Source: an uncultured Bacteroidales bacterium
Lineage (GTDB): Bacteria; Bacteroidota; Bacteroidia; Bacteroidales; CAIXZF01
Assembly: GCA_964608665.1 (NCBI GenBank)
Contig: CAZSQJ010000008.1
Span: forward strand, 12,935 to 76,934
Direction of reading: 5' to 3'
Length of the DNA stretch: 64,000 nucleotides
Part shown: one piece after another, positions 751-64,000 of the stretch
Position numbering within the stretch: position 1 is the first letter of the stretch
How the letters are laid out: the number at the start of each line of letters is the position of its first letter
Notes under the pieces: generated by a model
What the model saw: the letters and a program-made list of their open reading frames with translations, nothing else
Database searches by the model: none
What the model was told of the DNA's origin: nothing
Program-made: the position numbers and the translations under genes

Positions 751-3700
751 ATGAAAACAATTGTAATTCAGACCATCAGGAGTCAGCCGGGCAAAGCGGC
801 ATGGGTTATATTTACCCTGCTGTGGCTCTTTAGCTCCGGCCTGCGTGCCCAGAACATCGTCCAGGTGGAGTATTTCTTTAATACCGATCCCGGCTTTGGT
901 GCAGGAATCCAGGTACCGGTAAGCAATCCGGCACCCCTTCTCGACAACATCAACTTTGGGATCAGCACCGCCGGACTGACGGAAGGCTTCCACAGGCTTT
1001 TCATCAGAGCCCGCGACGACAGCGGCAGGTGGAGCCGGACCTATGACCGTGCCTTTCTCATCAATTCACTTCCCCTGCTATCACAGGATATTACAGAAGC
1101 AGAATACTTCTTCGACCAGGACCCGGGCCCGGGTCAGGGAAATCCCATTCCACTCACTCCGGGTCAGCACATTCAGAACCTGACGTATACCATTGATATT
1201 ACCAACCTCGCCCAGGGTATCCACCGGATCTTTGTCAGGGTAAAAGATGCAGCCGGTAACTGGAGTCTCACCCATCACCGGGCTTTTCTCAGGCAGATCA
1301 TCGTGCTGAACAATCCGGAGGTAGTTGCTGCAGAATATTTCTTCGACCAGGATCCCGGACCGGGACAGGGGAATCCCATCCCGCTCACTCCTGGTCTGAA
1401 CATTCAGAACCTGGCATATACCATTGACATTGCAGACCTCGATCAGGGTATCCACCGGATCTTTGTCAGGGTTAAAGACGCCAGCGGTAACTGGAGTCTC
1501 ACCCATCACCAGGCTTTTCTCAGGCAGGTTGTGGTTGCCGGCAATCCTGAGGTGGCTGCCGCGGAATACTACATTGACCAGGATCCGGGGTTCGGCAACG
1601 GTACTCCGATCCCTTTCGCCGTATCCGCTAATGTGACACTTGACTTTACCGTGGACATTGATTCCCTGCCGTCAGGGTTTCACCAGCTATGCGTTAGAGT
1701 GAAGGACAATGACGGCCGCTGGAGCATCACCCATTTCAAATCCTTCCTGAAAGAAGTGATTGTCATTGATAATCCCCTGATCACCGGGATCGAGTATTTC
1801 ATCGACAATGATCCCGGCTTTGGAAACGGGCAGTCCATTCCCGTCACTCCTTCGGTCAATCTGCCTTCTGTAGGTCATATCATCAACATTGCAGCCCTGA
1901 ACAACGGTTTCCACACCCTGTTCATCCGGGCCAGGGATGAAAACGGCCGGTGGAGCATCACCCAGTTCCGGAACTTCCTGAAACAAGTGGTGGTATTGAC
2001 AGAGAAGAAGATCAACAGGGCGGAATACTTCATTGACAATGATCCCGGTTTCGGACTGGGTACCGCCATTCCCGTTGAACCGGACTCCACCGACACCGAA
2101 TTGAGCTTCACTGCCGATCTCACTAACCTGGCAACGGGCTTTCACAAGTTGTTCGTCAGGACCAGGGATGAGGCAGGCCGCTGGAGTCACAGCAAATTCC
2201 AGGCATTCTTCAAAAAAGAAATCCAGCCCGACACGCTTCCCATGATCGTTGCTGTGGAATACTTTATCGACACCGACCCCGGTGCGGGCAACGGACATGC
2301 TGTCAGCGTCAATCCGGCCGTTAATACAGGTTTCCTTGCCTTTCAGCTTGATCTGAGCAATGTGGCTTTCGGCCAGCATTTTCTTTTTGTAAGGGCAAAG
2401 GATGAAAACGGAAGATGGAGCCTCATTACCCGCGACACCATCTTCTACTACCTGGATTCGCTGCCCACAGCCATGCTGACCGGTCCTGAGGGATTCTGCA
2501 TCAACAGCAGCGGGGAATTTGAGGTGACCCTCACCGGAACACCCCCATGGACCATCACCTGGTATAACGGGGAAGATACCCTGACCCAGGGCGGCATCAT
2601 GAACAGTCCCTTTGTTTTTAACGTAACTCCCTCATGGTCAGGACTCCATACGGCCAAAGTATTACAGGTTCAGGATGTGTATTATACCGGTCTGTACACC
2701 GGGATCCCCATTGAATACCAGGTTTATCCGCTGCCTGCAGCCGCCGGACCGGTAAACGGCCCGGAACATCTCTGCCAGGGGGCCGGTCATCACTGGTACT
2801 GGATCAATCCCGTGCAGCATGCCACCACCTACCAGTGGAACTACCCTGCAGGCGCGGTGGCTGTCGCCGGCCAGCACAACAGCAGCATATTGCTGGATTT
2901 CACCAATGTAAGCGGTGCGGGTACCGTGACAGTAACACCAGTGAATGCCTGCGGACCGGGTACTCCGTCCCAGCTCACAGTGACCGTGCATGCGCTGCCC
3001 GTGGTGGATGCCGGGCCCGACCAGAACATTCCGTTTGAGGACTCTGCGCTGATGGCGCCGGTGGTGACCGGAGGTTCAGAACCCTATTCCTGGTACTGGT
3101 ATCCTTACTGGCTTGTTGACAATCCTTATATACCCAATCCTACGGCTTATCCGCAGGGAAACACCACCTTTACCCTCTATGTGACCGATGCCAACGGCTG
3201 CCAGGCCTCCGACCAGGTAAGCATTTACGTGGGTTTACCGCCGGGGACACAGGTAAGCGGGGTACTGAGTTACGACAACAGTCTTTCGACACCGCTCAAC
3301 GAGGCCACCGTTTTTGTCAGGCAGGGCAGCGATGTGGTGGCTTCGGCCACGACAGGCAGCGCCGGTGATTTTACCATCCCCGGTCTGCCGGCCGGTTATT
3401 ACACCCTGTCGGCCAACTCCACCAAGCCCTGGGGCGGTGTCAACGCAACCGACGCCCTGCTGGTGCTGCAACACTTCACGGTGAACATCGAACTTGCCGG
3501 GCTGCGCCTTCAGGCTGCCGACGTGAATGCAACCGGAAGCGTGAACGCCATCGACGCCCTTCTGATTGCCAGAAGGTATACCGAGTTGATCAGCACTTTC
3601 CCTTCAGGCGACTGGCTTTCCGACATCCGCTCTGTATATGCTCCGGGAACCGGTATGATCACCGAAAACCTCGAAGCACTGGTATTTGGCGATGTTAATG

Positions 3701-24947: not shown

Positions 24948-26225
24948 TCAGAAAACAGTCCTGGAACCGTTCACATCACCGTAACACAGTCCTTTGATCG
25001 TCACCTGTACATTGCTGCTGCCGTCGAACAGCACTTCAGGATTTTCGAAAAGCCAGTCTCCGACCGGGAATCCAAAAATCAAGCCCACAAACCGTTTGGC
25101 TGCCAGGAGGGCATCGGTGGCATTGATGATATGGTTACCGTCGAGGTTTCCGGCTTCTTCCCTCAATCCGGCAAGGCCGCCCAGTCCAACGAACTGCTTC
25201 AGGATCAGCAGGGCATCGTCGGAGTTGACCCCGCCCCAGGGGATGTCTGTCTCAGTGACCAGCCTGTAGATGCCGGGTGAGAGTGCAGGAAAGGAAAAAC
25301 TGCCGTTTGCATCAGTAATGGCAGAATCGGCAATGGTACAGCATCCCACTTTGAGGGACACCTTCACACCGGCCAGGGGTGTTGAATCCGCGTTGTCGTA
25401 GAAAACAATTCCGCCAAGGTCAGCCAGTCCCAGCAAGGTTTCGTATGCAATGGCGGCATCGAAGGTTTCGTTCACCAGTTGCGGTGCTACCAGCTGGGTT
25501 GCGGCGGCATTGGGATGGCTGTCCCATGCAGACACTGCATAGGCCGGGTTCAGGTAGCCCTGAGCATTGGCGACTTTATGGAAATAATCGAATACGTACA
25601 CATTGGGAGGGAATTGTCCGTAAAGCGGGTCAAGGCCGGCAGCCAGGGTATCTTTGGCCCATTTGCTGAAGCGGTGGGAACGCTGGGCTTCATTGTAATT
25701 GGTGGCATTCTGAACCAGTGGCGCATTGGTCCAGATCACGAAAAAATGATCCGGGTGGCTTTCCATTACAGCCACAAATTTCCTCCAGTGCCATTTGTAA
25801 TTGTACACCGTTTTCAAGGTGGGATTCAGGGTGTCTGACGCCTGTCCTTCGGCCACAATGTTAGAACAGGGATAACAGGACTTGATCATCAGGACGGGAT
25901 TCCCGGCGAAGAAACTGAACACATTTTCGGGGTAGGCATCCGTAAAGATGGTATGCCAGGTTGACCATTCATTATCGCTGAAGGAAGGGAACCAGGTTTC
26001 CGTCATACTGACGGCCTGGGCTCCAGAGTATCCGTGTGCCTGGTTGTAAATCTGGATTTGCTGGGGAACGCTTGTAGTACTGCCGTTTGGCCCCCAGATA
26101 TTCCCGCCGGTACTGTGATGCAGGAAGATTCCGTTACGGATGACCGGATTCTGGCCGTATGTCAGACCAGCGATCATGAGTACCAACACCAGGCTGATGG
26201 GACGGTTCAGATTGGAATGGACCAT
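24948..26225 (-). CDS. Secreted protein with an N-terminal SGNH/GDSL-like hydrolase candidate domain plus a C-terminal beta-sandwich and dockerin-like module
   Basis: Signal peptide ISLVLVLMIAGLTYGQ. FLHHSTGGNIW near the N-terminus and WDSHPN (D-x-x-H-like block V) give weak support for an SGNH-like fold. The C-terminus is IPWGGVNSDDALLILKQF...GNLDGNHIINATDALLAAKRF...PVGDW...YGDVNGS. Confidence 0.6.
   Translation of the reverse strand: MVHSNLNRPISLVLVLMIAGLTYGQNPVIRNGIFLHHSTGGNIWGPNGSTTSVPQQIQIYNQAHGYSGAQAVSMTETWFPSFSDNEWSTWHTIFTDAYPENVFSFFAGNPVLMIKSCYPCSNIVAEGQASDTLNPTLKTVYNYKWHWRKFVAVMESHPDHFFVIWTNAPLVQNATNYNEAQRSHRFSKWAKDTLAAGLDPLYGQFPPNVYVFDYFHKVANAQGYLNPAYAVSAWDSHPNAAATQLVAPQLVNETFDAAIAYETLLGLADLGGIVFYDNADSTPLAGVKVSLKVGCCTIADSAITDANGSFSFPALSPGIYRLVTETDIPWGGVNSDDALLILKQFVGLGGLAGLREEAGNLDGNHIINATDALLAAKRFVGLIFGFPVGDWLFENPEVLFDGSSNVQVTIKGLCYGDVNGSRTVF
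24951..25420 (-). other. Beta-sandwich plus dockerin-like module (copy 3 of 4)
   Basis: Aligns by eye with 3241-3708 and 18081-18550. Confidence 0.6.
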
Positions 26226-51529: not shown

Positions 51530-52729
51530 ATGAGAACAATGGTCAGACTGGTCTTGATTTCATTCATCATTATCAGTTATTCCCAGGCAGGGAAATCCCA
51601 GTCCGGTGATAACCTCATCCGGGGCTACGTAAAATATGACAATACTGAAGCAAGTATCCTGCAGCAGGTGAAGGTATACCTGACCGACCTGGGCGGGAAC
51701 AAGCTGGATTCGACGACGACTAACCTGGGAGGGTACTTCGTTTTTTACGGAGTATCGCTTGGCAGTTTCAGGCTGATAACCGAAGCTGAAAAACCCTGGG
51801 GTGGGGTGAGTACGAACGATGCTTTACTGGCATTCAGGCATTTTGTAGAGATGGACACCCTGGAAGGCATGTCTTTTCTGGCGGCGGATGCAGATGGCAA
51901 CCATTACGTGAATGCCACGGATGCCATGGCCATTCTGGCCAGAGTGACAGGTGTAAGGAATTCCCTGCCGGCAGGTGACTGGTGTTTTGAGCAACCCATT
52001 GTGAATACGGGGGTTGCACCGGCCATGGTGTTTATCCGCGGCCGTTGCAGGGGCGACATCGACGGCAGTCACAGCCCGGTGATCATACCGGGATTCAATT
52101 GCGGAACAACGCTTGTCGACAGCCGCAACAGCGAAATATATCCCACGGTACAGATCGGAAGCCAGTGCTGGACGGCGAAAAGCATGAATATCGGAACCCA
52201 GATCCAGGGGAATCAGGCAGCCTCGAACAACCAGGTCATTGAAAAATACTGTTACAACAACATCCCGGAAAATTGCAGGAATTACGGGGGTCTTTACGAC
52301 TGGAATGAGATGATGCAGTATGCTCCGAATGAGGGAGCACAGGGAATTTGTCCGGCCGGCTGGCACGTACCGACAGACAATGAATGGTGTACCATGCTGA
52401 ATGCTCTGGAACCAGGGATTTCATGCACCCAGACCGGGCTGCTGGGTATGAAAGTGGGGGGGAAGCTGAAGGAAGCCGGTTATGAACACTGGAATTCTCC
52501 CAATACCGATGCCACGAATGAGGTTGGTTTTGCGGTTCTCGGTGCCGGAATGGGATACAACAACAATTTCTTCACAGCGATCCTCAATACGGGGGCTGTC
52601 TGGACTTCCACCCAGCACACTTACCAGAGCAATGCATGGTACCGTTCGTTCAGCGCCAACCACGGGCAGGTGATGCGCAACGGCTCATCGAAATCGAACA
52701 GGATCTCCGTCAGGTGTATCCTGGATTAG
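51530..52729 (+). CDS. Secreted protein with an N-terminal beta-sandwich plus dockerin-like module and a C-terminal Fibrobacter succinogenes major paralogous (FISUMP) domain
   Basis: Signal peptide. KPWGGVSTNDALLAFRHF...AADADGNHYVNATDAMAILARV...PAGDW...GDIDGS. FISUMP pattern YPTVQIGSQCWTAKSMNI...YGGLYDWNEMM...CPAGWHVPTDNEW...GGKLK...VWTST...ISVRCILD. Confidence 0.8.
   Translation: MRTMVRLVLISFIIISYSQAGKSQSGDNLIRGYVKYDNTEASILQQVKVYLTDLGGNKLDSTTTNLGGYFVFYGVSLGSFRLITEAEKPWGGVSTNDALLAFRHFVEMDTLEGMSFLAADADGNHYVNATDAMAILARVTGVRNSLPAGDWCFEQPIVNTGVAPAMVFIRGRCRGDIDGSHSPVIIPGFNCGTTLVDSRNSEIYPTVQIGSQCWTAKSMNIGTQIQGNQAASNNQVIEKYCYNNIPENCRNYGGLYDWNEMMQYAPNEGAQGICPAGWHVPTDNEWCTMLNALEPGISCTQTGLLGMKVGGKLKEAGYEHWNSPNTDATNEVGFAVLGAGMGYNNNFFTAILNTGAVWTSTQHTYQSNAWYRSFSANHGQVMRNGSSKSNRISVRCILD
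51611..52075 (+). other. Beta-sandwich plus dockerin-like module (copy 4 of 4; here N-terminal)
   Basis: Aligns by eye with the three other modules. Confidence 0.6.
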
Positions 52730-52745: not shown

Positions 52746-55700
52746 TCAGAGCATCCCGGAGATCAATGCATAGAGTTCACTCTTTTTAAAAGGTTTCGAG
52801 AGGTATGCATCGAAACCCATCGACAGGAACTGACCTTCATCCCCCTTCATGGCGTATGCGGTAAGCGCAGCTACAGGCAGACCGGAAAGGCCGGGCTGTT
52901 TACGGATGAGCCTTAAAACCTCAATGCCGTCCAAGCCTGTTTCCAGGTGAATATCAAGCAATACAATGTCATAATGGGTTTCACCCAGCTTTTGCAGGGC
53001 TTCCTGCCCGCTGGAAGCAACATCCATGGTTACTGTATCTCTCAGATAAGACACCATGAGCGATTGGTTGATGACATCATCCTCTACCAGTAAGACCCTG
53101 ATAGTCCGACCCTTTATGGAGGAAACCCGCAAGATATCCGGCAATACCCCGGCCTGCGCTTCTTGCTGTTGCATCTCTGCGCCGGTACCTGTCACGGGAA
53201 ATCGTACGATGAATTCCGTACCCTGTCCCAGGCTGCTTTTCACGCTGATGCTTCCGTTCATTTTTTCCACAAAACGTTTGGTAATGGAAAGACCCAGACC
53301 GCTTCCCTCGAAATGTCTGGAATAGCCCTCGCTTACCTGACGGAATTCATCAAAGATCGTTTCATGAAACTCTTCGGGGATGCCGATCCCGGTGTCCCGG
53401 ACGCAGCAAACCACGCAATTCCCGTAAGGCCCTTCCTCCAGATCGACCGATACTGTGATCCCGCCGGACACGGTATATTTCAATGCATTGTTTACAAGGT
53501 TGTGAAACACACTGCTGAGCATACGTTCATTCGATTGCATATATATATGCTCATGCGGAGTGTCAAAAGAAAGATACAGCTGCTTTTTTGCGGCACCCGG
53601 CATATAAGATTTGACCACGGACTCCGCCAGTGCAACCAGGTCAACACTGTTGACGGAGATTTCAACTTGTTCTGCTTCGAGTTTCGAGAGGTCGAGGATC
53701 AGGTTCAGGGTGTCCATCAGCCTGTTGCCGCTTTCCAGAATGTAGGAAGCCATTTTCGCATGTTCCTGGTCGAGCAGGCTTTCGTTCAGCAATTCCGCAT
53801 ACCCGAGGATCCCCGTCATTGGTGTCCTCAACTCATGACTCATATTGGCCAGAAAAGAAGTCTTGAGCCTTTCGCTTTCCTCGGCCTTTTCTTTGGCATC
53901 AAGCAACTGTCTCATGATAAGCTTCTTCTCCGAGATATCTTCCTTAAGCCCCAGGAAATGGGTGATCCTGCCCTGCTGGTTGAGGATAGGAGAAATAATA
54001 GCGTTTTCCCAGTATAATTCTCCGTCTTTTTTTCTGTTCTTCATTTCTCCCCTCCAGTCACCCCCGCCGGTAACAGTAGCCCAAAGGTTTTTGTAGAAGG
54101 CCGCATCATGAGCTCCTGATTTCAGAATTCGCGGATTCTGACCAATCACATCCTCAATGGAATATCCGGTGATTTCACAAAATTTCGGATTTACGTACTC
54201 TATGGTACCCATCGGATCAGTGATCACAATGCTAACGGGGCTTTGCTCAATTGCCTTGGACAGCATCAGCGCCTCTTCCTGACTTCTTTTCCTTTCAATG
54301 TAATTACTCAACTGATTAGCAACAATCTCAAGAATATCAACACTTTGCCTGTCGAAAGCCGCCGGATTGTCGTAACTCTGAACCACTACGGCACCGGTCA
54401 CCTTACCGCCGAAATTCAGGGGCACACCCAGCCAAACCTCTGCCCTGGCACCGATATATTCAATTTCACCGAGATCGGCAAGCATCTTGATTTCATCCTT
54501 CCTGATGAGCAGCGGGGCTTTTGTCTTGATTACCTTACCGGTAAGCGACTTCTCGGCAGTCCAGTAACCCGGAACGGCATCCTTTTCATCCTTTTCAAAC
54601 GGTGCGAATAACAAATTCCGTTTTTCATCATAAAAGGCCACAAAGAAATTGGTGGCATCGATCATCTTATTCAATTCGTGCTGTACGATACCAAAAAGTT
54701 CATTCACCAGGTCAACCGAAACCACCGCATTGGCAATATTATACTGAATCTGCTGGATCAATTCCGTTCTTTTCCGCTGTGTGGTATCCCTGCATACAGC
54801 GAATATCAGCAGGTTATCGCCAACGCGGGCCCCACTGGCCGAGACTTCCACATCAAACACAGTTCCGTCTTTCCTGCGATGCTTAGTTTCAAAGGTCTGG
54901 TGGACTGACACAATATCTGAAAACACCTCCCTGACTTCAGCTTCTCCCTGAACGGCATCGATCTCCCAGACAGACTTATGCCTGAGTTCACCGATTGGAT
55001 AGCCCAGCATGTCTGCAAATCTGAGATTGGCATCCACCAGCTGATACTCCTGATTGAAAATTGCAATCCCGTCATAAGAGGTGTCCATCAGAATTTTCCT
55101 TCGCATGGCCTCACTTTTCAATGCCCTTTCTGCATCCTTCCTTTCCCTGGCATTGCTGAGAATTTGTGCGAGTACATTTAAAAGATTCAATTCACTGTCA
55201 TCCCAGATACGGATGTCATGTACGGCATCAAAACCGACAAATCCCACACAATGGCCTTTCACAAACAATGGAAGTGTAATCAGGGTCTGGATATCCTGGG
55301 ACTCAAGGATGCTCCTGAGTTCGTTCCCCTTTGGAAGATCAGCCACCCTCGGAATATGAATGAGTTTCCCCGCCAGGTGTGTTTCCACCCATTCCGGGAT
55401 GGCATCATTGGGAACAGCCTGCAAATTGTCAATCTCCGGTCTGGTGCCGGGAGAACACCACTCATGGGTATTGGTCATGATCCCGTTATTGAAATCATAG
55501 GTGAACAGATAGGCCCTGTCGACCCTGATAAACTCACCCACCATTGCCAGGGTTCTGGTGATTTGCTCATCCAGCTGGTCGACTGGCATATTGACAAATT
55601 CCGTAGCCAGAACCAACAATAACTTTTGCAATTCCAGGCTACGTTCCAGCTTTTGTTCCACCTCTTTTCTCCTGCTGATGTCGGTATGCTGAATGATGAC

Positions 55701-57362
55701 ATGGCTGAGGCTGTTGTTTTCATCGAAAATCGGATATGCCCAGTTATCATACCACACTTTCTTCTTTTCCTTCACATCCACATGCTGGGAGGGAGATTCA
55801 GAAGCATTCCCGATATCGAACAACACCTGCCATTCAGCAGATTTCCCTTCCCGGAATACCTTTTTAAGGACCTTGTCAATCCCTTTGTCGATAATCTCCT
55901 GGTCCTTGAATATATTATAGACCTTACCCTCAATATCCGCTGAATCGACTCCGAAAATGTGGCTGAGTTTGCTGTTGATCCTTTCGCACCAGCCGTCCTT
56001 ATCCAGAATCTGAGTACTGACAGAGGACTGCAGAAACATCTGTTCAAAGAAATTCTTCTGTTCCCTCAGTTCCTCTTCAAATTGTTGCTGCAGTGTGATA
56101 TCCCGCACTGTTGTCAGTAACATCGGAGTACTTTCATATTGTACCAGGTCAACATTGATCAGTGCATTGAATACTACACCGTCTTTACGATGAAGTCTGA
56201 CATGCCAGTCGCGCACGTACCCTGTCTGCTTCAATTGCTGAATGAGGTATTTCCTGTCACCTGCATCCTGGTACATCGCACTAACATTCAAACCTTTTAA
56301 TTCTTCAAGGGAATAGCCCATCAGCTTCAGCATGGCAGGATTCGCTTCGTACATGTTTCCTGCCGGGTCGGCCAGTCCGACACCAACCGGAATCGTTTCG
56401 TACAACAGTCTGTATTTCTCCTCAGAAGTTTTCAGAGTATCTGCTGCCTTCTTTCTTTCGGTGATGTTCCTGACTGTGGTCTGTATGGCCGGCTTCCCGT
56501 CAAAGACAATAGGAATCCCGATCACATCGACATCGATGACACGACCCTGCATATCGAGAAACTTTTCCTCGGTAAATGGGGCAGGTTCAAGGGTTTCAAA
56601 AATTCTTGCAATCCTGTCCACAGCAAGCTTCCTGAAATCAGGGTGTACAAAATCCATCAGGGGTCTTTGTTGCATTTGTTCGAAAGAGTCAGCACCAACC
56701 ATCCGCACTGCGGCCTGATTGGCGAACAACAGCCTTCCTCCGGCATGCACGATGATGGCATCGGGAGAAAGATTCACCATCTGCCGGTATTTTTCTTCAC
56801 TCTCTGCCAGCCTGCTTTCACTTTCCTTTCTAGCATCATTTTCATTTTTCAGATCCTCCAGCAGGTTCAGCATGGCGAGGCGGTTATCCTCCAGTTCCCT
56901 GGTCCTGTTCTCCACTGATCCCGCAAATTCCTCGTTATCCAGGCGCGGTGCCCTGCGCCCAGCAGCATTGATCTTCAGCATCGACCTGAGGAGTGCCTGA
57001 AGCTCAGTTTCATCAAACGGAAAGGAGAGAAATGCATCAGCACCAGCCTCCAGGGCTTTCACCCTGCTGTGTTTGCCAGTATCATGCGAGGTAAGTACAA
57101 CCACAGGAATATGCCTTAGCGTCTGATCCGTCCTGATGACCTCAAGTATCCCGGAACAATCCGTGCCGTCCTTCGTACAGTCCATCATGATCAGATCCGG
57201 CACTTCTCCGCCCGTCGGGAAGATGACTGACGATTCGTCCGGGACAGCCATGATCACAGTTTCGGGAGAAGAAACACTGATGTGTGCTATCACTGTTTGC
57301 AAGTTGTCAGAGTCGTGTCCGATAACCAGTATTTTACCAGGGTCAACTTCCATGTTATTCAT
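52746..57362 (-). CDS. Giant cytoplasmic hybrid sensor histidine kinase. Domain order: N-terminal receiver, multiple PAS/PAC and GAF domains, HisKA, HATPase_c, C-terminal receiver.
   Basis: N-terminal REC-like region (KILVIGHD...LIMMDC...VVVLTSHD...AGADAFLSFPF). H-box MSHELRTPMTGILGYAELL. N/G boxes (NNALKYT, DTGIGIP, GSGLGLSI). C-terminal REC (VLLVEDDVINQ...DIVLLDIHL...LSKPF). The maximal ORF reaches 57557, but its first 65 aa are Cys-rich and unprotein-like, so I prefer the ATG at 57362. Confidence 0.85.
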   Translation of the reverse strand: MNNMEVDPGKILVIGHDSDNLQTVIAHISVSSPETVIMAVPDESSVIFPTGGEVPDLIMMDCTKDGTDCSGILEVIRTDQTLRHIPVVVLTSHDTGKHSRVKALEAGADAFLSFPFDETELQALLRSMLKINAAGRRAPRLDNEEFAGSVENRTRELEDNRLAMLNLLEDLKNENDARKESESRLAESEEKYRQMVNLSPDAIIVHAGGRLLFANQAAVRMVGADSFEQMQQRPLMDFVHPDFRKLAVDRIARIFETLEPAPFTEEKFLDMQGRVIDVDVIGIPIVFDGKPAIQTTVRNITERKKAADTLKTSEEKYRLLYETIPVGVGLADPAGNMYEANPAMLKLMGYSLEELKGLNVSAMYQDAGDRKYLIQQLKQTGYVRDWHVRLHRKDGVVFNALINVDLVQYESTPMLLTTVRDITLQQQFEEELREQKNFFEQMFLQSSVSTQILDKDGWCERINSKLSHIFGVDSADIEGKVYNIFKDQEIIDKGIDKVLKKVFREGKSAEWQVLFDIGNASESPSQHVDVKEKKKVWYDNWAYPIFDENNSLSHVIIQHTDISRRKEVEQKLERSLELQKLLLVLATEFVNMPVDQLDEQITRTLAMVGEFIRVDRAYLFTYDFNNGIMTNTHEWCSPGTRPEIDNLQAVPNDAIPEWVETHLAGKLIHIPRVADLPKGNELRSILESQDIQTLITLPLFVKGHCVGFVGFDAVHDIRIWDDSELNLLNVLAQILSNARERKDAERALKSEAMRRKILMDTSYDGIAIFNQEYQLVDANLRFADMLGYPIGELRHKSVWEIDAVQGEAEVREVFSDIVSVHQTFETKHRRKDGTVFDVEVSASGARVGDNLLIFAVCRDTTQRKRTELIQQIQYNIANAVVSVDLVNELFGIVQHELNKMIDATNFFVAFYDEKRNLLFAPFEKDEKDAVPGYWTAEKSLTGKVIKTKAPLLIRKDEIKMLADLGEIEYIGARAEVWLGVPLNFGGKVTGAVVVQSYDNPAAFDRQSVDILEIVANQLSNYIERKRSQEEALMLSKAIEQSPVSIVITDPMGTIEYVNPKFCEITGYSIEDVIGQNPRILKSGAHDAAFYKNLWATVTGGGDWRGEMKNRKKDGELYWENAIISPILNQQGRITHFLGLKEDISEKKLIMRQLLDAKEKAEESERLKTSFLANMSHELRTPMTGILGYAELLNESLLDQEHAKMASYILESGNRLMDTLNLILDLSKLEAEQVEISVNSVDLVALAESVVKSYMPGAAKKQLYLSFDTPHEHIYMQSNERMLSSVFHNLVNNALKYTVSGGITVSVDLEEGPYGNCVVCCVRDTGIGIPEEFHETIFDEFRQVSEGYSRHFEGSGLGLSITKRFVEKMNGSISVKSSLGQGTEFIVRFPVTGTGAEMQQQEAQAGVLPDILRVSSIKGRTIRVLLVEDDVINQSLMVSYLRDTVTMDVASSGQEALQKLGETHYDIVLLDIHLETGLDGIEVLRLIRKQPGLSGLPVAALTAYAMKGDEGQFLSMGFDAYLSKPFKKSELYALISGML

Positions 57363-57546
57363 AGTATCAAAGAAAGCATTCTGATTTGCGTAATTCCTTT
57401 TTTCCAGACAGCAAGCACTGCCAATGCCTTGATAATATTTGCCATACGGCATCCGTTGTATGAGTCCACAGCAGCAATCCTTCCTGTGCAAGGCCCGGAC
57501 TCTCTGTTCTCTGATGACCCTGTCACGGGCGCCACCGATACCGGAC

Positions 57547-58647
57547 TCATTCTGCAACAGGATATTTGGCGGGTTTGCCCGATTCCTTGCACAACATGTT
57601 CACTTCTTTCTTCAGTTCAATGATCCGGATCTCCCTTCCAACCGTCAACCGTTGAAAACGTTCCAGTTCTTCTATTTTCTGCATCAGAACCTCCGCATTC
57701 CTTTTTCGTTCGGTCACATCACGGAGATTCAGGATGATGCCATTGATGCCGGGCTGATTCACAAAATTCTGTCCGACAACCTCCATACTCCGGTAACTTC
57801 CGTCAGTATGCCGGAATAATATCTCAGACACTGAAACCGATTCAGGATGATTCAGCAGATCAGCAAGTCTTTCCATGACCCCCGGAAGATCATCCGGATG
57901 AACCAATTCCAGGGAACTGGTACCGAGCAGCTTTCCGGCATCGTAACCCATCAGGGAAGTGACTGCCGGACTGAGGTAGGTAATAATGCCATCCTTACTG
58001 GTCACGGCGATGATATCCGCGGAGTTCTGCACCAGCATCCGAAACCTGTTTTCCTGCTGAATCAACATCTGCACCGACTTTTTCCTTTCCCGCTGATCTG
58101 CAAGGACTTTGCCGATAAGCACGGTGATCATCGGATAGAACAGCAAAACAGTGACGGCCACCAGCTTCAGGGTTTCCCTGATATATGCGGTTGGCAACGA
58201 AAACATCAGGATGATCATCACCAGGTGTACGAACAGCCCCATCTTGTACAGGGTCTTCCAGGATATCCCCCGCTGCCTTTCCTTCCTGTCAACGAAAAAG
58301 TAGTACCCGATCAGAAAAGCCGTAAGGATGGTTGTAACACCCATGATGATGCCCGGCCCTCCCAGCCAGATCCTGTATGCGAGTACGATGACAACGGAAA
58401 TGATCCCGGCAACAGGTCCGAAAAACAGGGTACAAAGGCTGATGACAATGGTGCGCCCGTCGAAAATCAGTCCCTTCTGAAGTTCAAAAGGATAGAGCAT
58501 TCCAATAAAGGCGATCAACCCGAACAGCAAGCCCTGTAGCACTTTTCCGCGAAGCGAATCCCTGTCGAAGATATTGTCGATGAATCCCGACAACACACTC
58601 AGCGCCACAAGAGCGAAAAGGTTGTACATTAATTCGATGACTACCAT
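57547..58647 (-). CDS. Membrane sensor with a 5TM LytS/YhcK-type receptor domain plus one PAS domain and a coiled-coil tail, and no kinase or output domain
   Basis: 5TMR-LYT-like helices (FDGRTIVISLCTLFFGPVAGI). A PAS domain (FRMLVQNSADIIAVTSKDGIITYLSP...). The protein ends ...RIIELKKEVNMLCKESGKPAKYPVAE. I chose the ATG at 58647; the track TTG start is at 58662. Confidence 0.75.
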   Translation of the reverse strand: MVVIELMYNLFALVALSVLSGFIDNIFDRDSLRGKVLQGLLFGLIAFIGMLYPFELQKGLIFDGRTIVISLCTLFFGPVAGIISVVIVLAYRIWLGGPGIIMGVTTILTAFLIGYYFFVDRKERQRGISWKTLYKMGLFVHLVMIILMFSLPTAYIRETLKLVAVTVLLFYPMITVLIGKVLADQRERKKSVQMLIQQENRFRMLVQNSADIIAVTSKDGIITYLSPAVTSLMGYDAGKLLGTSSLELVHPDDLPGVMERLADLLNHPESVSVSEILFRHTDGSYRSMEVVGQNFVNQPGINGIILNLRDVTERKRNAEVLMQKIEELERFQRLTVGREIRIIELKKEVNMLCKESGKPAKYPVAE

Positions 58648-58970
58648 GGCAATTAATAACAAACAACAAACATAAAAAAAATTTTCAAACGAACCACTGG
58701 AAACATGTCATTAACCCCTTATTTGTTAAATGATTAAAGATGCGGTAAAAAACATGCCTCAGACAGCTCCGGCTAAATATCGGTAAAGTTAATATGTATT
58801 TGATTGTCTTCTGTCAGTTTCTTCCGGCGACGGACTCCCATATGCTTTATGGCAGACTGTGTTATTTTTTTGTTAAAGTACTCATTTTAAGACTCTTTAG
58901 ATAGACGTTGCGTGTTTCTATGGAAATATCATTTCAAAATGCCTGATGGCAATTAAAAGAGGGAGACAAT

Positions 58971-61900
58971 ATGTCAAAATTTTCCATTTCCTTTGTTATC
59001 TTTCTGATTACAGGCCTTTTACCGGCTTTCGGTCAGATTTCGGGAGACAGCACCGTATGCAGCGGTGAAACGGAACAGTATTCAGGTCCGGTGATTCCCG
59101 GTGCATCTTATTCATGGAATGTTGCGGGAGGGAACATCACAGGACCTTCGAACACAGGCATTGTCACAATCCAATGGCCAAATGCCGGAAGTGGCTCCAT
59201 CATGCTTACGGTTTACCTGCCCGATAACACGCAACAATTCTTTATTTTTCCTGTTGTGGTTCACCCTCTGCCCCAGCCCGTGATCACCCATCAGCCCTAC
59301 CCCGGCTGTCCGCCGGGCCACGGCAGGGATAACGGTGCCGGAAGCCCTGACCAGGGTGGCGGAAATGACTGTGATAAGGTGTGTAAGGGTGCCACCATCA
59401 CCTATTCGACCACGCTGAACCCGGGCAACACTTACCTGTGGACGGCGGGAGGCGCTTCTTCCCTCAGCGGGGCCAGTACGAATACAGTGACGGTAAGCTG
59501 GGACAACAGTCCGTTCGGATTTCTCACCGTGTACGAAACCAACCAGTGGGGTTGCGTGGATTCAGCCACCATCTGTATCGAAAAGGTCGATCTTCCGGTG
59601 GCTGCATTCACCCACCAACTGAACGTCTGTAAATTCTCCAGCGTGAACTTCACCAACCTGAGCACGGGAGCCACCTCCTTCCAATGGTATTTCGGTGACG
59701 GCGGCAACTCCACCCAGCAACATCCCACGCATGCTTACAGCAACAGCGGCTCCTACACCATCACCCTGATCGTGATGAACGACTGCTTTTGCGCCGACAC
59801 TTTCCAAAGTGTGATCCAGGTGGATTCTTTTCCGGGGCCGGAGATCAGTTGCCCTTCCACCGTCTGTGCCTTTGATACGGCAACCTATACAAGCGCAGCA
59901 GGCAATTGCACCCATAACTGGTTTGTGACCGGCGGCAGCATTACCGGACCATCCAACCAACCATCGGTGACGGTGGTCTGGGGTGCAGGTCAGACTGGTA
60001 TGCTTGGCCTGACCGTTACAGGCTGTGGCGGAACCTGCAGCGACACCACCTGGCTGATCATCCCCATCATACCTGCAAACGGAACCATCAGCGGGCCACC
60101 GAAGGTGTGCCCGGGAGAATGTGCCACATACTCCCTCCCGAAATTCAGCGGAGCCACATACAGCTGGAGTCTGAACAACGGCAGTTGCGGCACTATTCAG
60201 GACTCCAGTTGCTGCGAAGAGATCACCATCTGCTGGCCTGCAACCAGTTACTTCTGCACGGATACGCTGACTGTTACCTTCTGGGACCAGTTTCTCGGCT
60301 GTGGCGGAACGGCACAGATGATCATCCGCCTCAGGCCGGAACTCAGCATCTTCGGGCAAACAGAAGGATGCTCAAACGGTACCTCCAGCTTCTTTGCCTT
60401 TGGCAGCATCAACTGTATGTGGAATGTCAGTCCGGCCGGACCGGCCTATTCCCCGGGCCCGTCTCCATCTCTGAACGTAAACTGGCTGGGCCTGACCGGT
60501 AATTTCCAGGTCACTGCTTTTCCCGTCAACCCCAACCAGGTATGCAATGACTCAGCCACCGTACTGGTAAAGGTCATCGATCCTCCTGCAGCACCCGTCA
60601 TTACCGGCGACAGTGTTGTTTGTCCCGGCTCGGTGCACCAGTACTGTGCCACCGGGAACGGCATCATCCAATGGTTCGTTACCGGAGGCAACCCCTCAAA
60701 CGGAAGCGGCAACTGTATTACTGTCACCTGGGGAAACACCCCGCCTTTTTCGGTACAGGCAGTGGTCCAGATGCCTCAGTCGCCCTACTGTACATCAGAC
60801 CCAGCTATCCTTAACATCAACGTACCCCTGAATCCCCCGCCTCCCGCCTTCACCGGATCTGCCGTCGCATGCGCCAATGCTGTCAGTACGTATTCCACAC
60901 CCACGGCCTATCCGGCAGGGGCAAACTTCACCTGGTCGCTCAGTCCCTCCAATGCCGGTACCATCATTTCAGGCCAGGGCAGTGCTTCTATCCAGATTGA
61001 ATGGGGTAACAACGCGCCACAAACGGTCACGCTGAGTCTTACAGTGGATATCTGCGGCCAGACTGTCAGCAATACTTTATCCATACTGTTGACCCCCGCG
61101 CCCAATCCTTCTATCATACAACCTGGCAGTCTCTGCCCTGGTAATCCTGCCCAACTGAATGCGACCGGAGGAGTTTTCACGGCTTACCAGTGGAGCGGTC
61201 CCGGCGGTTTCACCTCCTCTTCCAACCCCGTCACCATTACCCAGGACGGACTTTACCAGGTCACAGTAACGGATGCAGGTGGTTGTACTGCACTGACCCA
61301 GCTCCTGGTTTCCTATACGGGTACACCTGTAGCGAGTATCAGTGCCCAGAACCCATTATCTTATTGTACGGGAGCAAGTTACAATGTGACACTTTGTGCC
61401 CTTGGCAATCCGAACTATACCTATGCCTGGTCAAATGCAGCCACTTCCCAGTGCATCACAGTGAGTAACCAGGGTAACTTCCAGGTAACGGTCACCGATG
61501 CTTCCAACGGATGCTTTGCCATATCCAATATGATTGCCGTTACTGAATCACCCTGTCAGCCGGATACAGGCACCTGTGTTCCTACTGGCAGCGTAAGCTT
61601 CACGTATTCAGGATGCAATCCCGTTTCATTCCTGAATACATCTGTCAATGCAGGCTCATTCTCATGGAATTTCGGAGATCTCTCCTCTTCAACCCAGACC
61701 AACCCGACCCATACCTATAATGCGGCAGGGTTCTTCCTTGTTTCGCTCTATGGCTATGTACCCGATGCTTCCGGCACCGATTCCTGCCTGCTGGTCGATA
61801 CCGCCCTGATCGAAATCCCACTGCTTCCCCGTTTCACTGCTGCGCCAGGCTGTTCGACAGACCCGGTATGTTTTACCGATAACAGCGTCTTCACGGCCGG

Positions 61901-64000
61901 CAACAACATCACCTCCTGGTTATGGAACTTCGGCGACGCCAATACATCGACAGCCCAAAACCCCTGTCATCTCTACAGCACAAGCGGCACCTTCATCGTC
62001 ACACTTATGATATCCAACGGTCCCTGCACCACCTCCTGGTCCGACACCATCGTGGTACTCCCACAACCCAATGCAGCCTTCAGCTTCAGCAATGCAAACT
62101 GTGTAAACAGCCCGGTATTCTTCAACGACCTGTCGGCAAGCAGTATCAACTACTGGAACTGGAACTTCGGCAACGCCGGAACCTCACTCAACCAGAACCC
62201 TGCGCAGGCATACACCCTTCCGGGCACTTACCCCGTCACACTCATCGTACATGACATCAACGGATGTTACGACACGGCCACCATCCCTGTCACTGTCAGT
62301 CCGAACAATCTCGGAGGCAACATCACAGCCTTCCCCGACAGCATCGTTTGTGCAGGCACTCCCGTGATCCTGGCAGCCCCCGTATGTGCCGGCTGTACCT
62401 ACCTGTGGAGTAACGGCAGCACCAACGACAGCATCACCGTTACCACCAGCGGATTTTACCAGGTGCAGGTGAGCGATCTGAACGGTTGCACCTATTCAAC
62501 TTACATCAGGGTGATTGTTAACCAGTTGCCCTTTGCTCAAATAATCGGGCCCACCGATGCCTGCATCAATGATTTTGTTTCTCTGTCTGTTCCGTACAAT
62601 CCCAACTGGCTGTACACCTGGATCAGCAACGACACCAGCGCGAACGGCCAGACGGGACCCGGGGTCTGGTTGACGGCTGCTTCGCCCGGACTGCTTAATT
62701 TCAGTGTGGTACTGACCGACACGGTGACCGGCTGCACTGATACCACTGCCGTGCACCTGCTTACCGTTCATCCGGCACCCGCACCCCCGGTCGTCACGGC
62801 CCTTACAGCTACGGTGGTATGCGAGGGCGACAGTATCCTGCTGCTGATGACCCATCCCGATACTACGGTCAGCCTGAGCTGGAGCACCGGTGAGGTGAAC
62901 GACACCCTGGTGGTTACCAAAGACGGCTGTTACGATGCCATTGCCACCAATATCTGGGGCTGCAGCAGCACTACCACCTTCTGCGTCACCGTGAACGAAC
63001 TGCCTGAACTGTGCTCCTTTTACGAAGGTTGTTTCGACACCTGCGCACCCTATACCATCGCCGGACCGGCCGGAGGAAGCTCCTACCAGTGGCTGCTGAA
63101 CGGCATCCCCATCACCGGTGCCGACAGCCAGTATTATACCGCAACAATCAGTGGTGCATACTCGCTTATCGTCACCAACAGCTTCGGATGTACAGATACC
63201 ACAGGAGTGCTCAACCTGAACCTTTACCCATGTCCGGGTGATGCCTGTGTGGAATTCCTCATCGACACTGTAACCTGCGATCCCGCCACAGGTCAGTGGG
63301 CGATGCAATTCCATATCATCAACCTGACCAATATTGTTCTGACGGAAATACATCTGCAACTCCTGCCCCCCAACATGGGTGCGGGTTACTTCCCGGGCGC
63401 ATTTATCCAGACCGTCCAGCCGGGAGATACATCCACCCCGATGACAACCGTTATTTCGAATGCGGCTGCCGGAGATACCCTTTGTTTCCGGACCAATGTC
63501 TTTACATACAATGAAAACAACATTGAAGTCCTTGTCTGCTCATCCGATACCCTATGTTTCGTGCTTCCGCCCTGCGGAAATGATACCTCCTGCTGTTACC
63601 TCGGGTTTGTGAGTGATTCAATCTGGTGTGTCACCGATCCCACAGGTGCACCCGCTTATCACTTCAATATAGTGGTGGAAGGTTGCGGCATATTGGACGT
63701 ACAATTGGCGGGTCCCGGAAATATCAGTCTGAACGGACCCTATATCCTGAACGGCGGACAACTTACGCTGAGCGGATTCTATTCTGCTGCCGGCGGCAAC
63801 ACCCTTTGCCTGCTCTTTATGATGCATGATTCCGTAAACTACTGCGCCGATACCATTGTATGTTACAGCCTGCCGCCCTGTCCGCCACCCTCACTCCCCT
63901 GCGAGTGGGGCTTTGATCATTTCATTTGTGCCGGACAATCATCCGTATTCCAGCATTTTTACTTTGTTCCGGGCGTCAGTTACAACTGGCAGTTTCCCGG
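58971..64000 (+). CDS. Giant Cys-rich secreted adhesin-like protein (more than 1,676 aa, 3' end outside the window) with PKD and Ig-like repeat modules. It is not in the supplied ORF track.
   Basis: My manual translation of the frame starting at the ATG at 58971 found no stop up to nt 64000. Signal peptide MSKFSISFVIFLITGLLPAFGQ. PKD signatures WYFGDGGNSTQQHPTHAY..GSYTITL, WNFGDLSSSTQTNPTHTY, WNFGDANTSTAQNPCHLY..GTFIVTL and WNFGNAGTSLNQNPAQAY..GTYPVTL. Five G.Y.V.V.D..GC modules. Confidence 0.85.
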   Translation, partial: MSKFSISFVIFLITGLLPAFGQISGDSTVCSGETEQYSGPVIPGASYSWNVAGGNITGPSNTGIVTIQWPNAGSGSIMLTVYLPDNTQQFFIFPVVVHPLPQPVITHQPYPGCPPGHGRDNGAGSPDQGGGNDCDKVCKGATITYSTTLNPGNTYLWTAGGASSLSGASTNTVTVSWDNSPFGFLTVYETNQWGCVDSATICIEKVDLPVAAFTHQLNVCKFSSVNFTNLSTGATSFQWYFGDGGNSTQQHPTHAYSNSGSYTITLIVMNDCFCADTFQSVIQVDSFPGPEISCPSTVCAFDTATYTSAAGNCTHNWFVTGGSITGPSNQPSVTVVWGAGQTGMLGLTVTGCGGTCSDTTWLIIPIIPANGTISGPPKVCPGECATYSLPKFSGATYSWSLNNGSCGTIQDSSCCEEITICWPATSYFCTDTLTVTFWDQFLGCGGTAQMIIRLRPELSIFGQTEGCSNGTSSFFAFGSINCMWNVSPAGPAYSPGPSPSLNVNWLGLTGNFQVTAFPVNPNQVCNDSATVLVKVIDPPAAPVITGDSVVCPGSVHQYCATGNGIIQWFVTGGNPSNGSGNCITVTWGNTPPFSVQAVVQMPQSPYCTSDPAILNINVPLNPPPPAFTGSAVACANAVSTYSTPTAYPAGANFTWSLSPSNAGTIISGQGSASIQIEWGNNAPQTVTLSLTVDICGQTVSNTLSILLTPAPNPSIIQPGSLCPGNPAQLNATGGVFTAYQWSGPGGFTSSSNPVTITQDGLYQVTVTDAGGCTALTQLLVSYTGTPVASISAQNPLSYCTGASYNVTLCALGNPNYTYAWSNAATSQCITVSNQGNFQVTVTDASNGCFAISNMIAVTESPCQPDTGTCVPTGSVSFTYSGCNPVSFLNTSVNAGSFSWNFGDLSSSTQTNPTHTYNAAGFFLVSLYGYVPDASGTDSCLLVDTALIEIPLLPRFTAAPGCSTDPVCFTDNSVFTAGNNITSWLWNFGDANTSTAQNPCHLYSTSGTFIVTLMISNGPCTTSWSDTIVVLPQPNAAFSFSNANCVNSPVFFNDLSASSINYWNWNFGNAGTSLNQNPAQAYTLPGTYPVTLIVHDINGCYDTATIPVTVSPNNLGGNITAFPDSIVCAGTPVILAAPVCAGCTYLWSNGSTNDSITVTTSGFYQVQVSDLNGCTYSTYIRVIVNQLPFAQIIGPTDACINDFVSLSVPYNPNWLYTWISNDTSANGQTGPGVWLTAASPGLLNFSVVLTDTVTGCTDTTAVHLLTVHPAPAPPVVTALTATVVCEGDSILLLMTHPDTTVSLSWSTGEVNDTLVVTKDGCYDAIATNIWGCSSTTTFCVTVNELPELCSFYEGCFDTCAPYTIAGPAGGSSYQWLLNGIPITGADSQYYTATISGAYSLIVTNSFGCTDTTGVLNLNLYPCPGDACVEFLIDTVTCDPATGQWAMQFHIINLTNIVLTEIHLQLLPPNMGAGYFPGAFIQTVQPGDTSTPMTTVISNAAAGDTLCFRTNVFTYNENNIEVLVCSSDTLCFVLPPCGNDTSCCYLGFVSDSIWCVTDPTGAPAYHFNIVVEGCGILDVQLAGPGNISLNGPYILNGGQLTLSGFYSAAGGNTLCLLFMMHDSVNYCADTIVCYSLPPCPPPSLPCEWGFDHFICAGQSSVFQHFYFVPGVSYNWQFP

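Follow-up and report, generated by a model that had tools for sequence, protein, structure and literature searches.

A 2,279-residue PKD-module protein with a type A T9SS sorting domain and a dockerin/cohesin-like cassette in an uncultured Bacteroidales bacterium

The gene at the window edge

The stretch of DNA analysed here, referred to as the window, spans 64,000 nucleotides and derives from an uncultured Bacteroidales MAG. Its 3' end is occupied by one long plus-strand gene that runs off the window. The features of the region are as follows (aa numbers refer to the encoded protein).

58944..58970, +: in-frame TGA (58944-58946) followed by eight non-start codons, from direct reading
58971..64000, +: window part of the gene, codons 1-1676 of 2,279 (translation, contig extension, homologues)
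58971..59033, +: Sec signal peptide, aa 1-21, MSKFSISFVIFLITGLLPAFG followed by Gln at +1, read by eye from the sequence
59034..59606, +: PKD_6-like modules 1 and 2, aa 22-104 and 131-212, with a Pro/Gly-rich linker between them (PF19408, 21.2 and 24.2 bits; own-repeat HMM)
59607..59837, +: canonical PKD domain 1, aa 213-289 (best PKD_4 stretch 209-277; own-repeat HMM, 95.6 bits)
59838..61109, +: five PKD_6-like modules, aa 290-713 (PF19408; boundaries from own-repeat HMM)
61110..61559, +: two Ig-like modules of the G.Y.V.V.D..GC type, aa 714-863 (pattern, windowed phmmer, own-repeat HMM)
61587..62309, +: three tandem canonical PKD domains, aa 873-1113 (PKD_4; own-repeat PKD HMM, 86-100 bits)
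62322..63245, +: four SprB/Ig_7-like Ig-like modules, aa 1118-1425 (pattern and own-repeat HMM; PF19081 Ig_7 at E 0.024 only)
63240..63920, +: pair of ~113-aa Cys-rich beta-sandwiches, aa 1424-1539 and 1540-1650 (AF2 model; no Pfam or PDB sequence match)
63903..64000, +: start of canonical PKD domain 5, aa 1645-1727, truncated at the window end (own-repeat HMM)
59562..60359, -: antisense shadow ORF of 265 aa, not a gene (no Pfam match; mirrored codon-position GC)
62496..63359, -: antisense shadow ORF of 287 aa, not a gene (no Pfam match; mirrored codon-position GC)

Programmatic translation of 58971-64000 yields a single plus-strand frame of 1,676 codons with zero stops, in agreement with a first-pass annotation of this DNA, and an ORF listing in which open ends are allowed returns 58971..63998 (+), 1676 aa, with an ATG start and an open 3' end. 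The default listing omits the gene because a stop codon is absent inside the window, which is the reason originally put forward for a gene of more than 5 kb being unlisted; the closed listing contains, as had been described, short plus-strand ORFs (at most 131 aa) together with two long minus-strand ones. Extension into the parent contig reaches the C-terminus: the gene ends at window-equivalent position 65810, 1,810 nt beyond the window (G000:C8:71905-78744), and its translation gives a full protein of 2,279 aa. As the TGA lies eight codons upstream with no start codon between, translation can begin no earlier than ATG 58971; with the codons that precede the ATG, the open frame amounts to 2,287 aa. 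A purine-rich, SD-like AGAGGGAG is located 5 nt before ATG 58971.

A chance reading frame is excluded because approximately 70 homologues match the protein with scores from ~1,380 to ~5,170 bits, and the frame at 58971 is a genuine gene. The gene is single-copy: a search of the same genome disclosed no paralogue of its core closer than 25% identity. The first-pass label 'giant' is relative, as the genome contains at least 10 longer T9SS-tailed open frames, with lengths up to ~5,390 aa. Taken alone, the gene encodes one more large T9SS surface protein, and its chief use is to close a gap in the annotation where the window ends.

The two long minus-strand ORFs, which share the same antisense phase, were considered as genes and ruled out on the grounds that they have no family matches and that their codon-position GC is mirrored: the values are 0.69/0.55/0.45 for 59562..60359 (-) versus 0.49/0.53/0.62 for the sense frame. 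They are antisense shadows, as had been proposed. The flanks of the gene accommodate 5TMR-LYT/PAS and hybrid kinase genes, a cytochrome c protein, two Pfam-less ORFs and an isochorismatase. A conserved operon with the downstream ORFs of 246 and 184 aa was also rejected, as ORFs of similar length at locus L005 are unrelated to them (E 0.41 and 5.4); synteny is observed only in a relative whose protein is 85% identical, and was judged there from ORF lengths alone.

Domain architecture and conservation

From the N-terminus the protein consists of the signal peptide, PKD-superfamily modules accompanied by the Cys-rich pair, a prealbumin-like/dockerin-like/cohesin-like cassette and a type A tail. 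The signal peptide reported in the first-pass annotation is borne out by inspection: its n-region contains K, the hydrophobic core is 16 residues long and A-F-G stands immediately before the Q. The junction, in which A or G precedes Q[IV][ST]G[DA]..VC.G, is conserved in 18 of the 22 homologues listed. A Gln at +1 of the predicted signal peptide is consistent with the Bacteroidetes Q-rule (PMC5837995).

The body is made up of 22 consecutive beta-sandwich domains, arranged like beads on a string, 20 belonging to the PKD superfamily (six of them canonical PKD) and two being Cys-rich. In the full protein PKD_4 (PF18911) scores 206 bits and PKD (PF00801) 118 bits, each over six stretches and above the gathering cut-off (GA); in the window part, Pfam returns four PKD_4 stretches (160.8 bits), and a pattern search places PKD signatures at aa 239, 899, 985 and 1064, the four that had been noticed at first. 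The modules initially described by the motif CxG....Y...GG.I.G turn out to be PKD_6-like: the stretch aa 620-712 matches PF19408 with 37.4 bits (GA 25) and three other modules stay below the cut-off at about 21-24 bits. Within the set at aa 290-713, the last module (625-713) passes the Pfam cut-off and the others give 22.6 bits or no match. The five G.Y.V.V.D..GC modules could likewise be recovered, four by a strict pattern and the fifth, at ~aa 836, by reading the translation; for those at aa 714-863 Pfam matches are weak (K319L-like_PKD, E 0.0023). Self-BLAST found no internal repeats, and windowed phmmer and own-repeat HMMs were required instead; all the ~80-aa modules converge onto one own-repeat HMM. 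No catalytic domain is detectable in the 2,279-aa protein.

The homologues, mostly from Chitinophagales/Bacteroidota MAGs, are colinear over aa 1-1792 and are annotated merely as 'PKD domain-containing protein'. They include a family of ~1,880-aa proteins named 'PKD domain-containing protein' or 'PKD repeat protein' (P0011-P0072), which are 42-61% identical over that colinear region and share with our protein the Cys-rich pair, the signal-peptide junction and almost all of the 82 core cysteines. In most members of this family another type A tail (PNPNDGSF...) follows the core with nothing in between, whereas our protein and P0003-P0007, P0009 and P0020 carry an extra PKD domain and the dockerin/cohesin/CTD cassette. 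The closest relative, P0003 from the MAG RA.bin97, is 85% identical and displays an internal duplication of ~370 aa that includes the Cys-rich pair. Wide taxonomic conservation was considered and rejected: a sample of 150 genomes from the order yielded the family signature only in a same-genus genome, and one of 400 genomes from the phylum gave two weak matches only.

Nearly all 82 cysteines are invariant among orthologues, and the fixed order of 22 domains is retained with almost all of these residues at ~53% identity. This constancy is unlike the behaviour of fast-shuffling repeat adhesins and, judged from the sequences, points to a defined rigid structure. The Cys-rich pair is predicted to be all-beta, folded as two beta-sandwiches (AF2, pLDDT 88.3). 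It has no Pfam match, nor a significant PDB sequence match by single sequence or by profile. As a candidate known domain it was rejected, the fold search returning generic tandem Ig-like matches only (TM 0.25-0.30).

The C-terminal cassette and its paralogues

The cassette that follows the PKD modules (aa 1885-2279) opens with a prealbumin-like beta-sandwich, to which a three-helix module of dockerin-like type is joined; then come a beta-sandwich resembling cohesins and, at the C-terminus, the type A T9SS sorting domain. The protein's own dockerin-like unit spans aa 1885-2045, and the prealbumin/dockerin unit measures ~155 aa. The tail itself scores just below the GA of 27 for PF18962 (Por_Secre_tail; E 1.8e-5 to 1.6e-4, 22.3-25.4 bits) and below the cut-off of 23 for TIGR04183 (E 0.0039, 17.1 bits). 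A tblastn search with aa 2190-2279, however, retrieves ~30 paralogous tails in the genome, matched with E values from 1e-13 to 1e-17; some of them pass the Pfam cut-off, for example C15:32870-33097 (48.5 bits, E 1.7e-13). Por_Secre_tail is matched in 20 of 22 aligned cassettes, where PNP, G and G.Y do not vary, and the AF2 model of the cassette ends in a C-terminal beta-sandwich. Although its own scores are sub-threshold, the combined evidence decides that the tail is a T9SS type A sorting domain.

Parts of the T9SS machinery are encoded in the genome: profile searches identify the sortase PorU (NF033707, 1,357 bits) and the translocon SprA (TIGR04189, 2,668 bits), as well as at least 170 T9SS cargo tails, of which at least 150 are type A and 21 type B, and the protein is an ordinary member of this very large class. 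Type A CTD cargo is exemplified by RgpB and HBP35 of P. gingivalis and by many surface proteins of Flavobacterium and Cytophaga. With cargo of this kind (TIGR04183/PF18962) the protein has in common a Sec signal peptide with Gln at +1, PorU and SprA in the genome, a C-terminal beta-sandwich of ~80 aa with PNP, G and G.Y motifs, and tandem Ig-like/PKD modules upstream of the tail. It differs in HMM scores lying just under the curated cut-offs, in the lack of an enzyme domain and in a tail embedded in the prealbumin/dockerin/cohesin cassette; its secretion and anchoring are predicted.

The first-pass annotation had instead described the G.Y.V.V.D..GC modules as of a type that precedes gliding-motility/T9SS type B C-terminal domains, thereby implying such a tail here. 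A tail of the type B/CHU_C kind is rejected, since neither TIGR04131 nor PF13585 matches the protein at E<=1 although the genome gives 21 matches above cut-off. The same result weighs against the protein being an SprB-like gliding adhesin, namely a type B cargo that is held by a PorP/SprF-like partner and moves along the surface. The protein does resemble SprB/CHU_C-type adhesins (TIGR04131/PF13585) in its long arrays of Cys-containing Ig-like modules, with a weak, sub-threshold similarity of the G.Y.V.V.D..GC modules to the 'CHU_C-associated' Ig_7 (PF19081, E 0.024-0.027); moreover, distant homologues (25-28% identity) carry PF13585/CHU_C tails and type B tails exist in the genome. Nevertheless, the tail is type A-like, the SprB repeat (PF13573) is not found in the protein and a PorP/SprF-type gene is missing from the flanks, where genes for a sensor kinase and for a cytochrome c protein lie, so that an SprB-like role is scarcely credible.

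The dockerin-like module, three-helical in the AF2 model, scores 21.8-22.2 bits against Dockerin_1 (PF00404; GA 22.9), with paralogues reaching 30.9. Reading of the sequence shows that its first Ca-binding loop is degenerate (KPWGGVNATD versus D.N.DG...D) and that the second, NVDLNPVVNSID, retains the oxygen ligands. For the cohesin-like domain (~aa 2045-2190) the protein alone has no Pfam match to Cohesin (PF00963), which is matched in three of 22 cassette paralogues (best E 3.1e-4). A profile of the cassette finds dockerins (E 7.5e-10) and the cohesin 2xdh (E 2e-5) among solved structures, and Foldseek aligns the cassette model with the cohesin-FN3 structure 2w1n (E 9e-10) and, with a moderate TMt of 0.56-0.57, with Coh-OlpC 4dh2.

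The dockerin-like and cohesin-like parts could conceivably be mere structural elements, namely beta-sandwich/helical spacers that have lost binding, and the whole protein a long PKD-repeat stalk that either binds some ligand at its tip or has no binding role and serves as a surface coat or spacer. The degenerate loop, the sub-threshold Dockerin_1 score and the missing Cohesin match fit such a role, as does the wide occurrence, outside cellulosomes, of cohesin/dockerin-like modules to which no role is assigned (Peer et al. 2009, cited in PMC8542988). Yet the dockerin-like unit recurs in 102 paralogous copies with invariant positions in this 4-Mb genome, several paralogues exceed the Dockerin_1 and Cohesin cut-offs, and the pTM of 0.74 obtained for the cassette model suggests an ordered packing, which together render a spacer function very unlikely.

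The entire cassette, prealbumin-like, dockerin-like and cohesin-like domains plus type A tail, is common to ~43 proteins of the genome, and ~38 further signal-peptide-bearing proteins terminate in a dockerin-like unit alone, including lyase-like, phosphatase-like and heparinase-like enzymes. Examples of dockerin-terminated proteins are a beta-helix protein at C119:3606 and a phosphatase-like protein at C48:13488. Enzymes and one cohesin+dockerin adaptor-like protein are also among the dockerin-like paralogues tested. The tail exemplifies a T9SS-linked dockerin/cohesin cassette that is hugely expanded in this genome.

The cassette has analogies with cellulosome anchoring modules (C. thermocellum OlpC cohesin-Doc435, PDB 4dh2): dockerin-like and cohesin-like modules are recognized by profile and fold, the cohesin adjoins a cell-surface anchoring signal, and many dockerin-tagged secreted proteins, enzymes included, are encoded in one genome. 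There are also differences. Here dockerin and cohesin reside on the same polypeptide, which also includes a prealbumin-like domain fused to them, and one Ca loop, the first, is degenerate. The host is a Gram-negative bacterium in which anchoring would go through the T9SS, and most of the tagged proteins are non-cellulases, binding being predicted from sequence and fold. A further close system is the CTD-bearing cellulosome-like one that Williams et al. (2021, PMC8542988) inferred in Ca. Stygibacter.

A predicted surface fibril and network

On the strength of its sequence features the protein probably forms a surface fibril or adhesin anchored through the T9SS, 'adhesin', the word used in the first-pass annotation, being a reasonable inference. 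Sec would export the protein, the N-terminal Gln would be cyclised and the domains would acquire their disulfide bonds in the periplasm. With its type A tail the protein would then pass through SprA, after which PorU would cut the tail off and attach the freshly exposed C-terminus to a glycolipid of the outer membrane. The expected product is a stiff fibril, estimated at several tens of nanometres, with the N-terminal modules outermost as a binding end, while the membrane-proximal dockerin and cohesin may plug the fibril into other surface proteins. These two modules could also capture some of the ~100 dockerin-tagged proteins of the genome and give rise to a cellulosome-style surface network. 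Taken as a whole, this account, in which a single-copy gene specifies a 2,279-aa T9SS type A cargo that becomes an anchored fibril joining a dockerin/cohesin network, appears likely. Should binding be demonstrated, the cassette would represent a Gram-negative counterpart to cellulosome anchoring.

The anchored state is what separates this account from one in which the protein ends up, after release, in the medium or biofilm matrix, soluble or matrix-forming, with dockerin and cohesin cross-linking it off the cell. The secretion signals would be identical in both cases, T9SS effectors may be either released or anchored (PMC10202324), some type A cargo is released, and a cassette holding both plug and socket could form cell-free chains. 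However, type A cargo is described as covalently anchored to anionic LPS (PMC9143113), and a cohesin immediately preceding the anchor signal is reminiscent of anchoring scaffoldins, so that release is an unlikely fate.

A bolder and rather doubtful extension is conceivable: the ~43 cassette proteins and ~38 dockerin-only proteins might constitute a self-assembling, T9SS-anchored plug-and-socket lattice, with the 22-domain, 41-disulfide fibril as one long conserved display arm and the Cys-rich pair as a specific recognition element, not a spacer. The pair occurs in 226 of 1.84 billion representative proteins, and this rare and unnamed Cys-rich Ig-like domain could be defined as a new family.

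Reading frame and extent of the PKD gene

The frame that opens at the ATG at window position 58971 runs without a stop to the end of the window, and translation of 58971–64000 on the plus strand yields 1,676 residues, in agreement with the uninterrupted frame described in the first-pass annotation. An in-frame TGA lies at 58944–58946 and none of the eight codons separating it from the ATG is a start codon, so that the start is unambiguous. The annotation had also remarked that the ORF track lacked this gene and displayed two long minus-strand ORFs instead. The same picture emerges from the ORF finder when open ends are disallowed: only plus-strand ORFs of at most 131 aa and the two minus-strand ORFs are listed in the region. 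When open ends are allowed, the frame appears as '58971..63998 + 1676aa ATG,3open'; the gene was therefore omitted, as had been proposed, only because no stop codon falls within the window. The window corresponds to positions 12935–76934 of the parent contig C8 (94,317 nt), and extension along that contig reaches the C-terminus: 2,279 codons precede the stop (C8:71905–78744), with no N inside the frame in the whole-genome sequence. The G+C content of the ORF is 54.7% versus 49.7% for the genome.

The two minus-strand ORFs lie in one antisense phase, and their GC content by codon position mirrors that of the sense frame (0.49/0.53/0.62). A Pfam search of both matched no family, and only 27 codons in the sense frame have a stop as their complement. 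These ORFs are shadows of the PKD gene, as suspected earlier.

Minus-strand ORFs within the PKD gene (window positions)
59562–60359, minus: shadow ORF, 265 aa, codon-position GC 0.69/0.55/0.45
62496–63359, minus: shadow ORF, 287 aa, codon-position GC 0.66/0.49/0.51

Domain architecture and conservation of the core

The full protein matches the Pfam families PKD_4 (206 bits) and PKD (118 bits) over six stretches each. A piecewise Pfam scan of the protein assigns the N-terminal 'CxG...Y...GG.I.G' modules to PKD_6 (PF19408), with aa 620–712 above cut-off at 37.4 bits and three further modules at 21–24 bits. For the 'G.Y.V.V.D..GC' modules Pfam offers nothing beyond weak matches of the Ig_7 or K319L-like kind. 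Whichever module type seeds the HMM, the search arrives at one and the same set of 20 units of ~80 aa, which indicates that all belong to one PKD superfamily.

Core domains of the PKD protein (aa from its Met, plus strand)
213–284, 875–951, 954–1029, 1037–1109, 1646–1722, 1802–1887: six canonical PKD domains (PKD-only HMM)
1424–1539, 1540–1650: two Cys-rich units of ~113 aa each, between modules 17 and 18

The Cys-rich pair has no match in Pfam, and neither a single-sequence nor a profile search connects it with any PDB sequence. AlphaFold2, given 26 homologous segments, models the pair confidently (mean pLDDT 88.3) as all-beta, and Foldseek relates the model only to generic tandem Ig-like or PapD-like pairs (TM 0.25–0.30). 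A search of 1.84 billion representatives with the profile of the pair yields 226 proteins at E ≤ 1e-3, of which 58 reach E ≤ 1e-10; five of ten scanned carriers have Por_Secre_tail matches, two of these above cut-off. Taken together, these observations define the unit as a rare Ig-like domain, so far without a name, that occurs in surface proteins of the T9SS type. The pair in the PKD gene is the sole copy in the genome.

A whole-length search recovers ~70 homologues at 42–61% identity, and P0003, from a same-genus genome, at 85% (2,650 aa). Their source MAGs carry the label Chitinophagales, Bacteroidales or Bacteroidota. The proteins go by no name other than 'PKD domain-containing protein' or 'PKD repeat protein' and are colinear with residues 1 to ~1792. 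In an alignment of 71 sequences, nearly every one of the core's 82 cysteines is invariant. Among the homologues the junction of the signal peptide recurs as '...A/G|Q[IV][ST]G', which matches the Bacteroidetes Q-rule (PMC5837995). The family is patchy: of 150 genomes sampled from the order, the same-genus genome alone has the Cys-rich signature, and 400 sampled from the phylum give two matches, both weak. The source genome has no core paralogue closer than 25% identity. P0003 (G114:C28:111611–113446; L004:6001–13947) contains an internal ~370-aa tandem duplication spanning the Cys-rich pair, and the pair profile matches it in full twice.

Most homologues are ~1,880 aa long and consist of the core and a type A tail of another subtype (PNPNDGSF...). 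An extra PKD domain and a dockerin/cohesin/CTD cassette are found, among the homologues, only in P0003–P0007, P0009 and P0020; in the subgroup of the PKD protein the ancestral tail has therefore been replaced by the cassette with its own tail.

The C-terminal cassette and its expansion

The first-pass annotation had likened five 'G.Y.V.V.D..GC' modules to those upstream of gliding-motility type B C-terminal domains; no such domain was found, as neither TIGR04131 nor PF13585 matches at E ≤ 1. Instead, the last ~395 residues form a four-part cassette: prealbumin-like, dockerin-like, cohesin-like and T9SS type A tail.

Sequence matches in the cassette (aa, plus strand)
1894–1947: CarboxypepD_reg/SdrD-B-like
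1953–2001: Dockerin_1, 21.8–22.2 bits (cut-off 22.9)
2198–2263: Por_Secre_tail, 22.3–25.4 bits (cut-off 27); TIGR04183 17.1 (cut-off 23)

A profile of 22 paralogous cassettes, searched against solved structures, matches dockerins (8x3a, E 7.5e-10), the SdrD B domain (E 1.5e-9), cohesin 2xdh over the post-dockerin segment (E 2e-5) and, weakly, the Por CTD 8glj_D (0.052). The AlphaFold2 model of aa 1885–2279 is very confident (pLDDT 90.9, pTM 0.74) and places in order a beta-sandwich, three helices, a larger beta-sandwich and a small final one; its best Foldseek match is the cohesin-FN3 pair 2w1n (E 9e-10), and the OlpC cohesin of 4dh2 aligns at TMt 0.56–0.57. The dockerin-like module has a degenerate first Ca loop. 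The tail is homologous to ~30 others in the genome, including that at C15:32870–33097 (E 1.7e-13), which scores 48.5 bits on PF18962, and carries PNP, G and G.Y at columns where the cassette alignment shows no variation. On this combined evidence of homology, motifs, profile, model and fold, the protein is filed as probable T9SS type A cargo, its own single-sequence scores lying just under the curated cut-offs.

A tblastn search with aa 1885–2010 detects 102 copies in the 4.06-Mb genome. The repeated unit, ~155 aa, comprises a prealbumin/SdrD-B-like beta-sandwich, dockerin-like helices and 'GDW.F...LCYGDVNGSY.P'.

Examples of the ~155-aa unit in the window
3223–3600 (C8:16157–16534)
18195–18542 (C8:31129–31476), minus
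25062–25418 (C8:37996–38352), minus
51692–51967 (C8:64626–64901)

Forty-three complete ORFs share a 375–402-aa ending of unit, cohesin-like module and type A tail. A further 38 stop 25–45 aa past the dockerin-like helices without a T9SS tail (for example C119:3606, C48:13488, C8:31476, window ~18542, and C16:1350), and nearly all of these start with a signal-peptide-like hydrophobic N-terminus. Domain scans of ten of the 38, several of which exceed the Dockerin_1 cut-off, revealed beta-helix/Pel9A-like, purple-acid-phosphatase-like metallophosphoesterase and heparinase II/III-like proteins, a GBD_T9SS_assoc protein and an adaptor-like protein with cohesin (28.8 bits) and dockerin. In a few proteins of the genome the unit directly follows the signal peptide. 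Williams et al. 2021 (PMC8542988) inferred a cellulosome-like system with CTDs for Cloacimonadota.

Proposed surface export and gene neighbourhood

The genome encodes PorU (1,357 bits) and SprA (2,668 bits). Among 266 candidates, at least 150 Por_Secre_tail matches pass the Pfam cut-off, and type B tails number 21. This is a very heavy T9SS cargo load for a 4-Mb genome, with several open frames of 4,300–5,400 aa. The PKD gene is therefore not unique, nor is it the largest: at least ten open frames with a T9SS tail exceed it in length, the longest of ~5,390 aa.

Anionic LPS serves as the covalent anchor for type A cargo, type B is held by PorP-like proteins (PMC9143113), and CTDs are 3+4 beta-sandwiches (PMC11285876). 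Alongside the domain content, tail homology, T9SS machinery and conservation observed here, this established biology points to a path in which the protein would be exported by Sec, with Gln22 cyclised, would form ~41 disulfides in the periplasm and pass through SprA, after which PorU would remove the tail and the protein would be attached to the outer membrane. With 22 beta-sandwiches of ~3.5–4 nm, it may stand as a fibril estimated at several tens of nm. As no catalytic domain is detectable in the protein, its most likely role is in binding or structure. Its dockerin-like and cohesin-like modules, which would lie near the membrane, could join it to other surface proteins nearby or capture proteins that bear a dockerin tag.

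The initial observation of a giant PKD-repeat protein thus stands, its interpretation in part, the expected type B C-terminus giving way to a cassette with a type A tail. The product is probably a surface protein with PKD repeats and a T9SS type A tail, an already known kind of protein, of modest interest on two counts: the strictly conserved, disulfide-rich order of 22 domains, which includes a rare unnamed one, and the massive expansion of the dockerin/cohesin cassette in this genome.

No T9SS or PorP/SprF component is present among the neighbours of the gene. Upstream and divergent lies a split or two-part sensor (window 52746–58662, minus): a 371-aa 5TMR-LYT/PAS membrane protein whose gene shares 11 nt with the start of that for a 1,603-aa PAS/GAF/HisKA/HATPase/receiver hybrid kinase. 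The downstream neighbours are a cytochrome c protein, two ORFs that match nothing in Pfam and an isochorismatase. Conserved linkage to the downstream 246-aa and 184-aa ORFs was considered and failed in a 54%-identity relative. The cytochrome c-domain ORF (326 aa; L002:7959–8939, G000:C8:78863–79843) sits between the PKD gene and these two ORFs. At the P0003 locus, L004, ORFs of 246 and 184 aa directly follow the PKD gene, the likeness being one of ORF length alone; the matching lengths suggest a local insertion or deletion at the cytochrome c-domain ORF.
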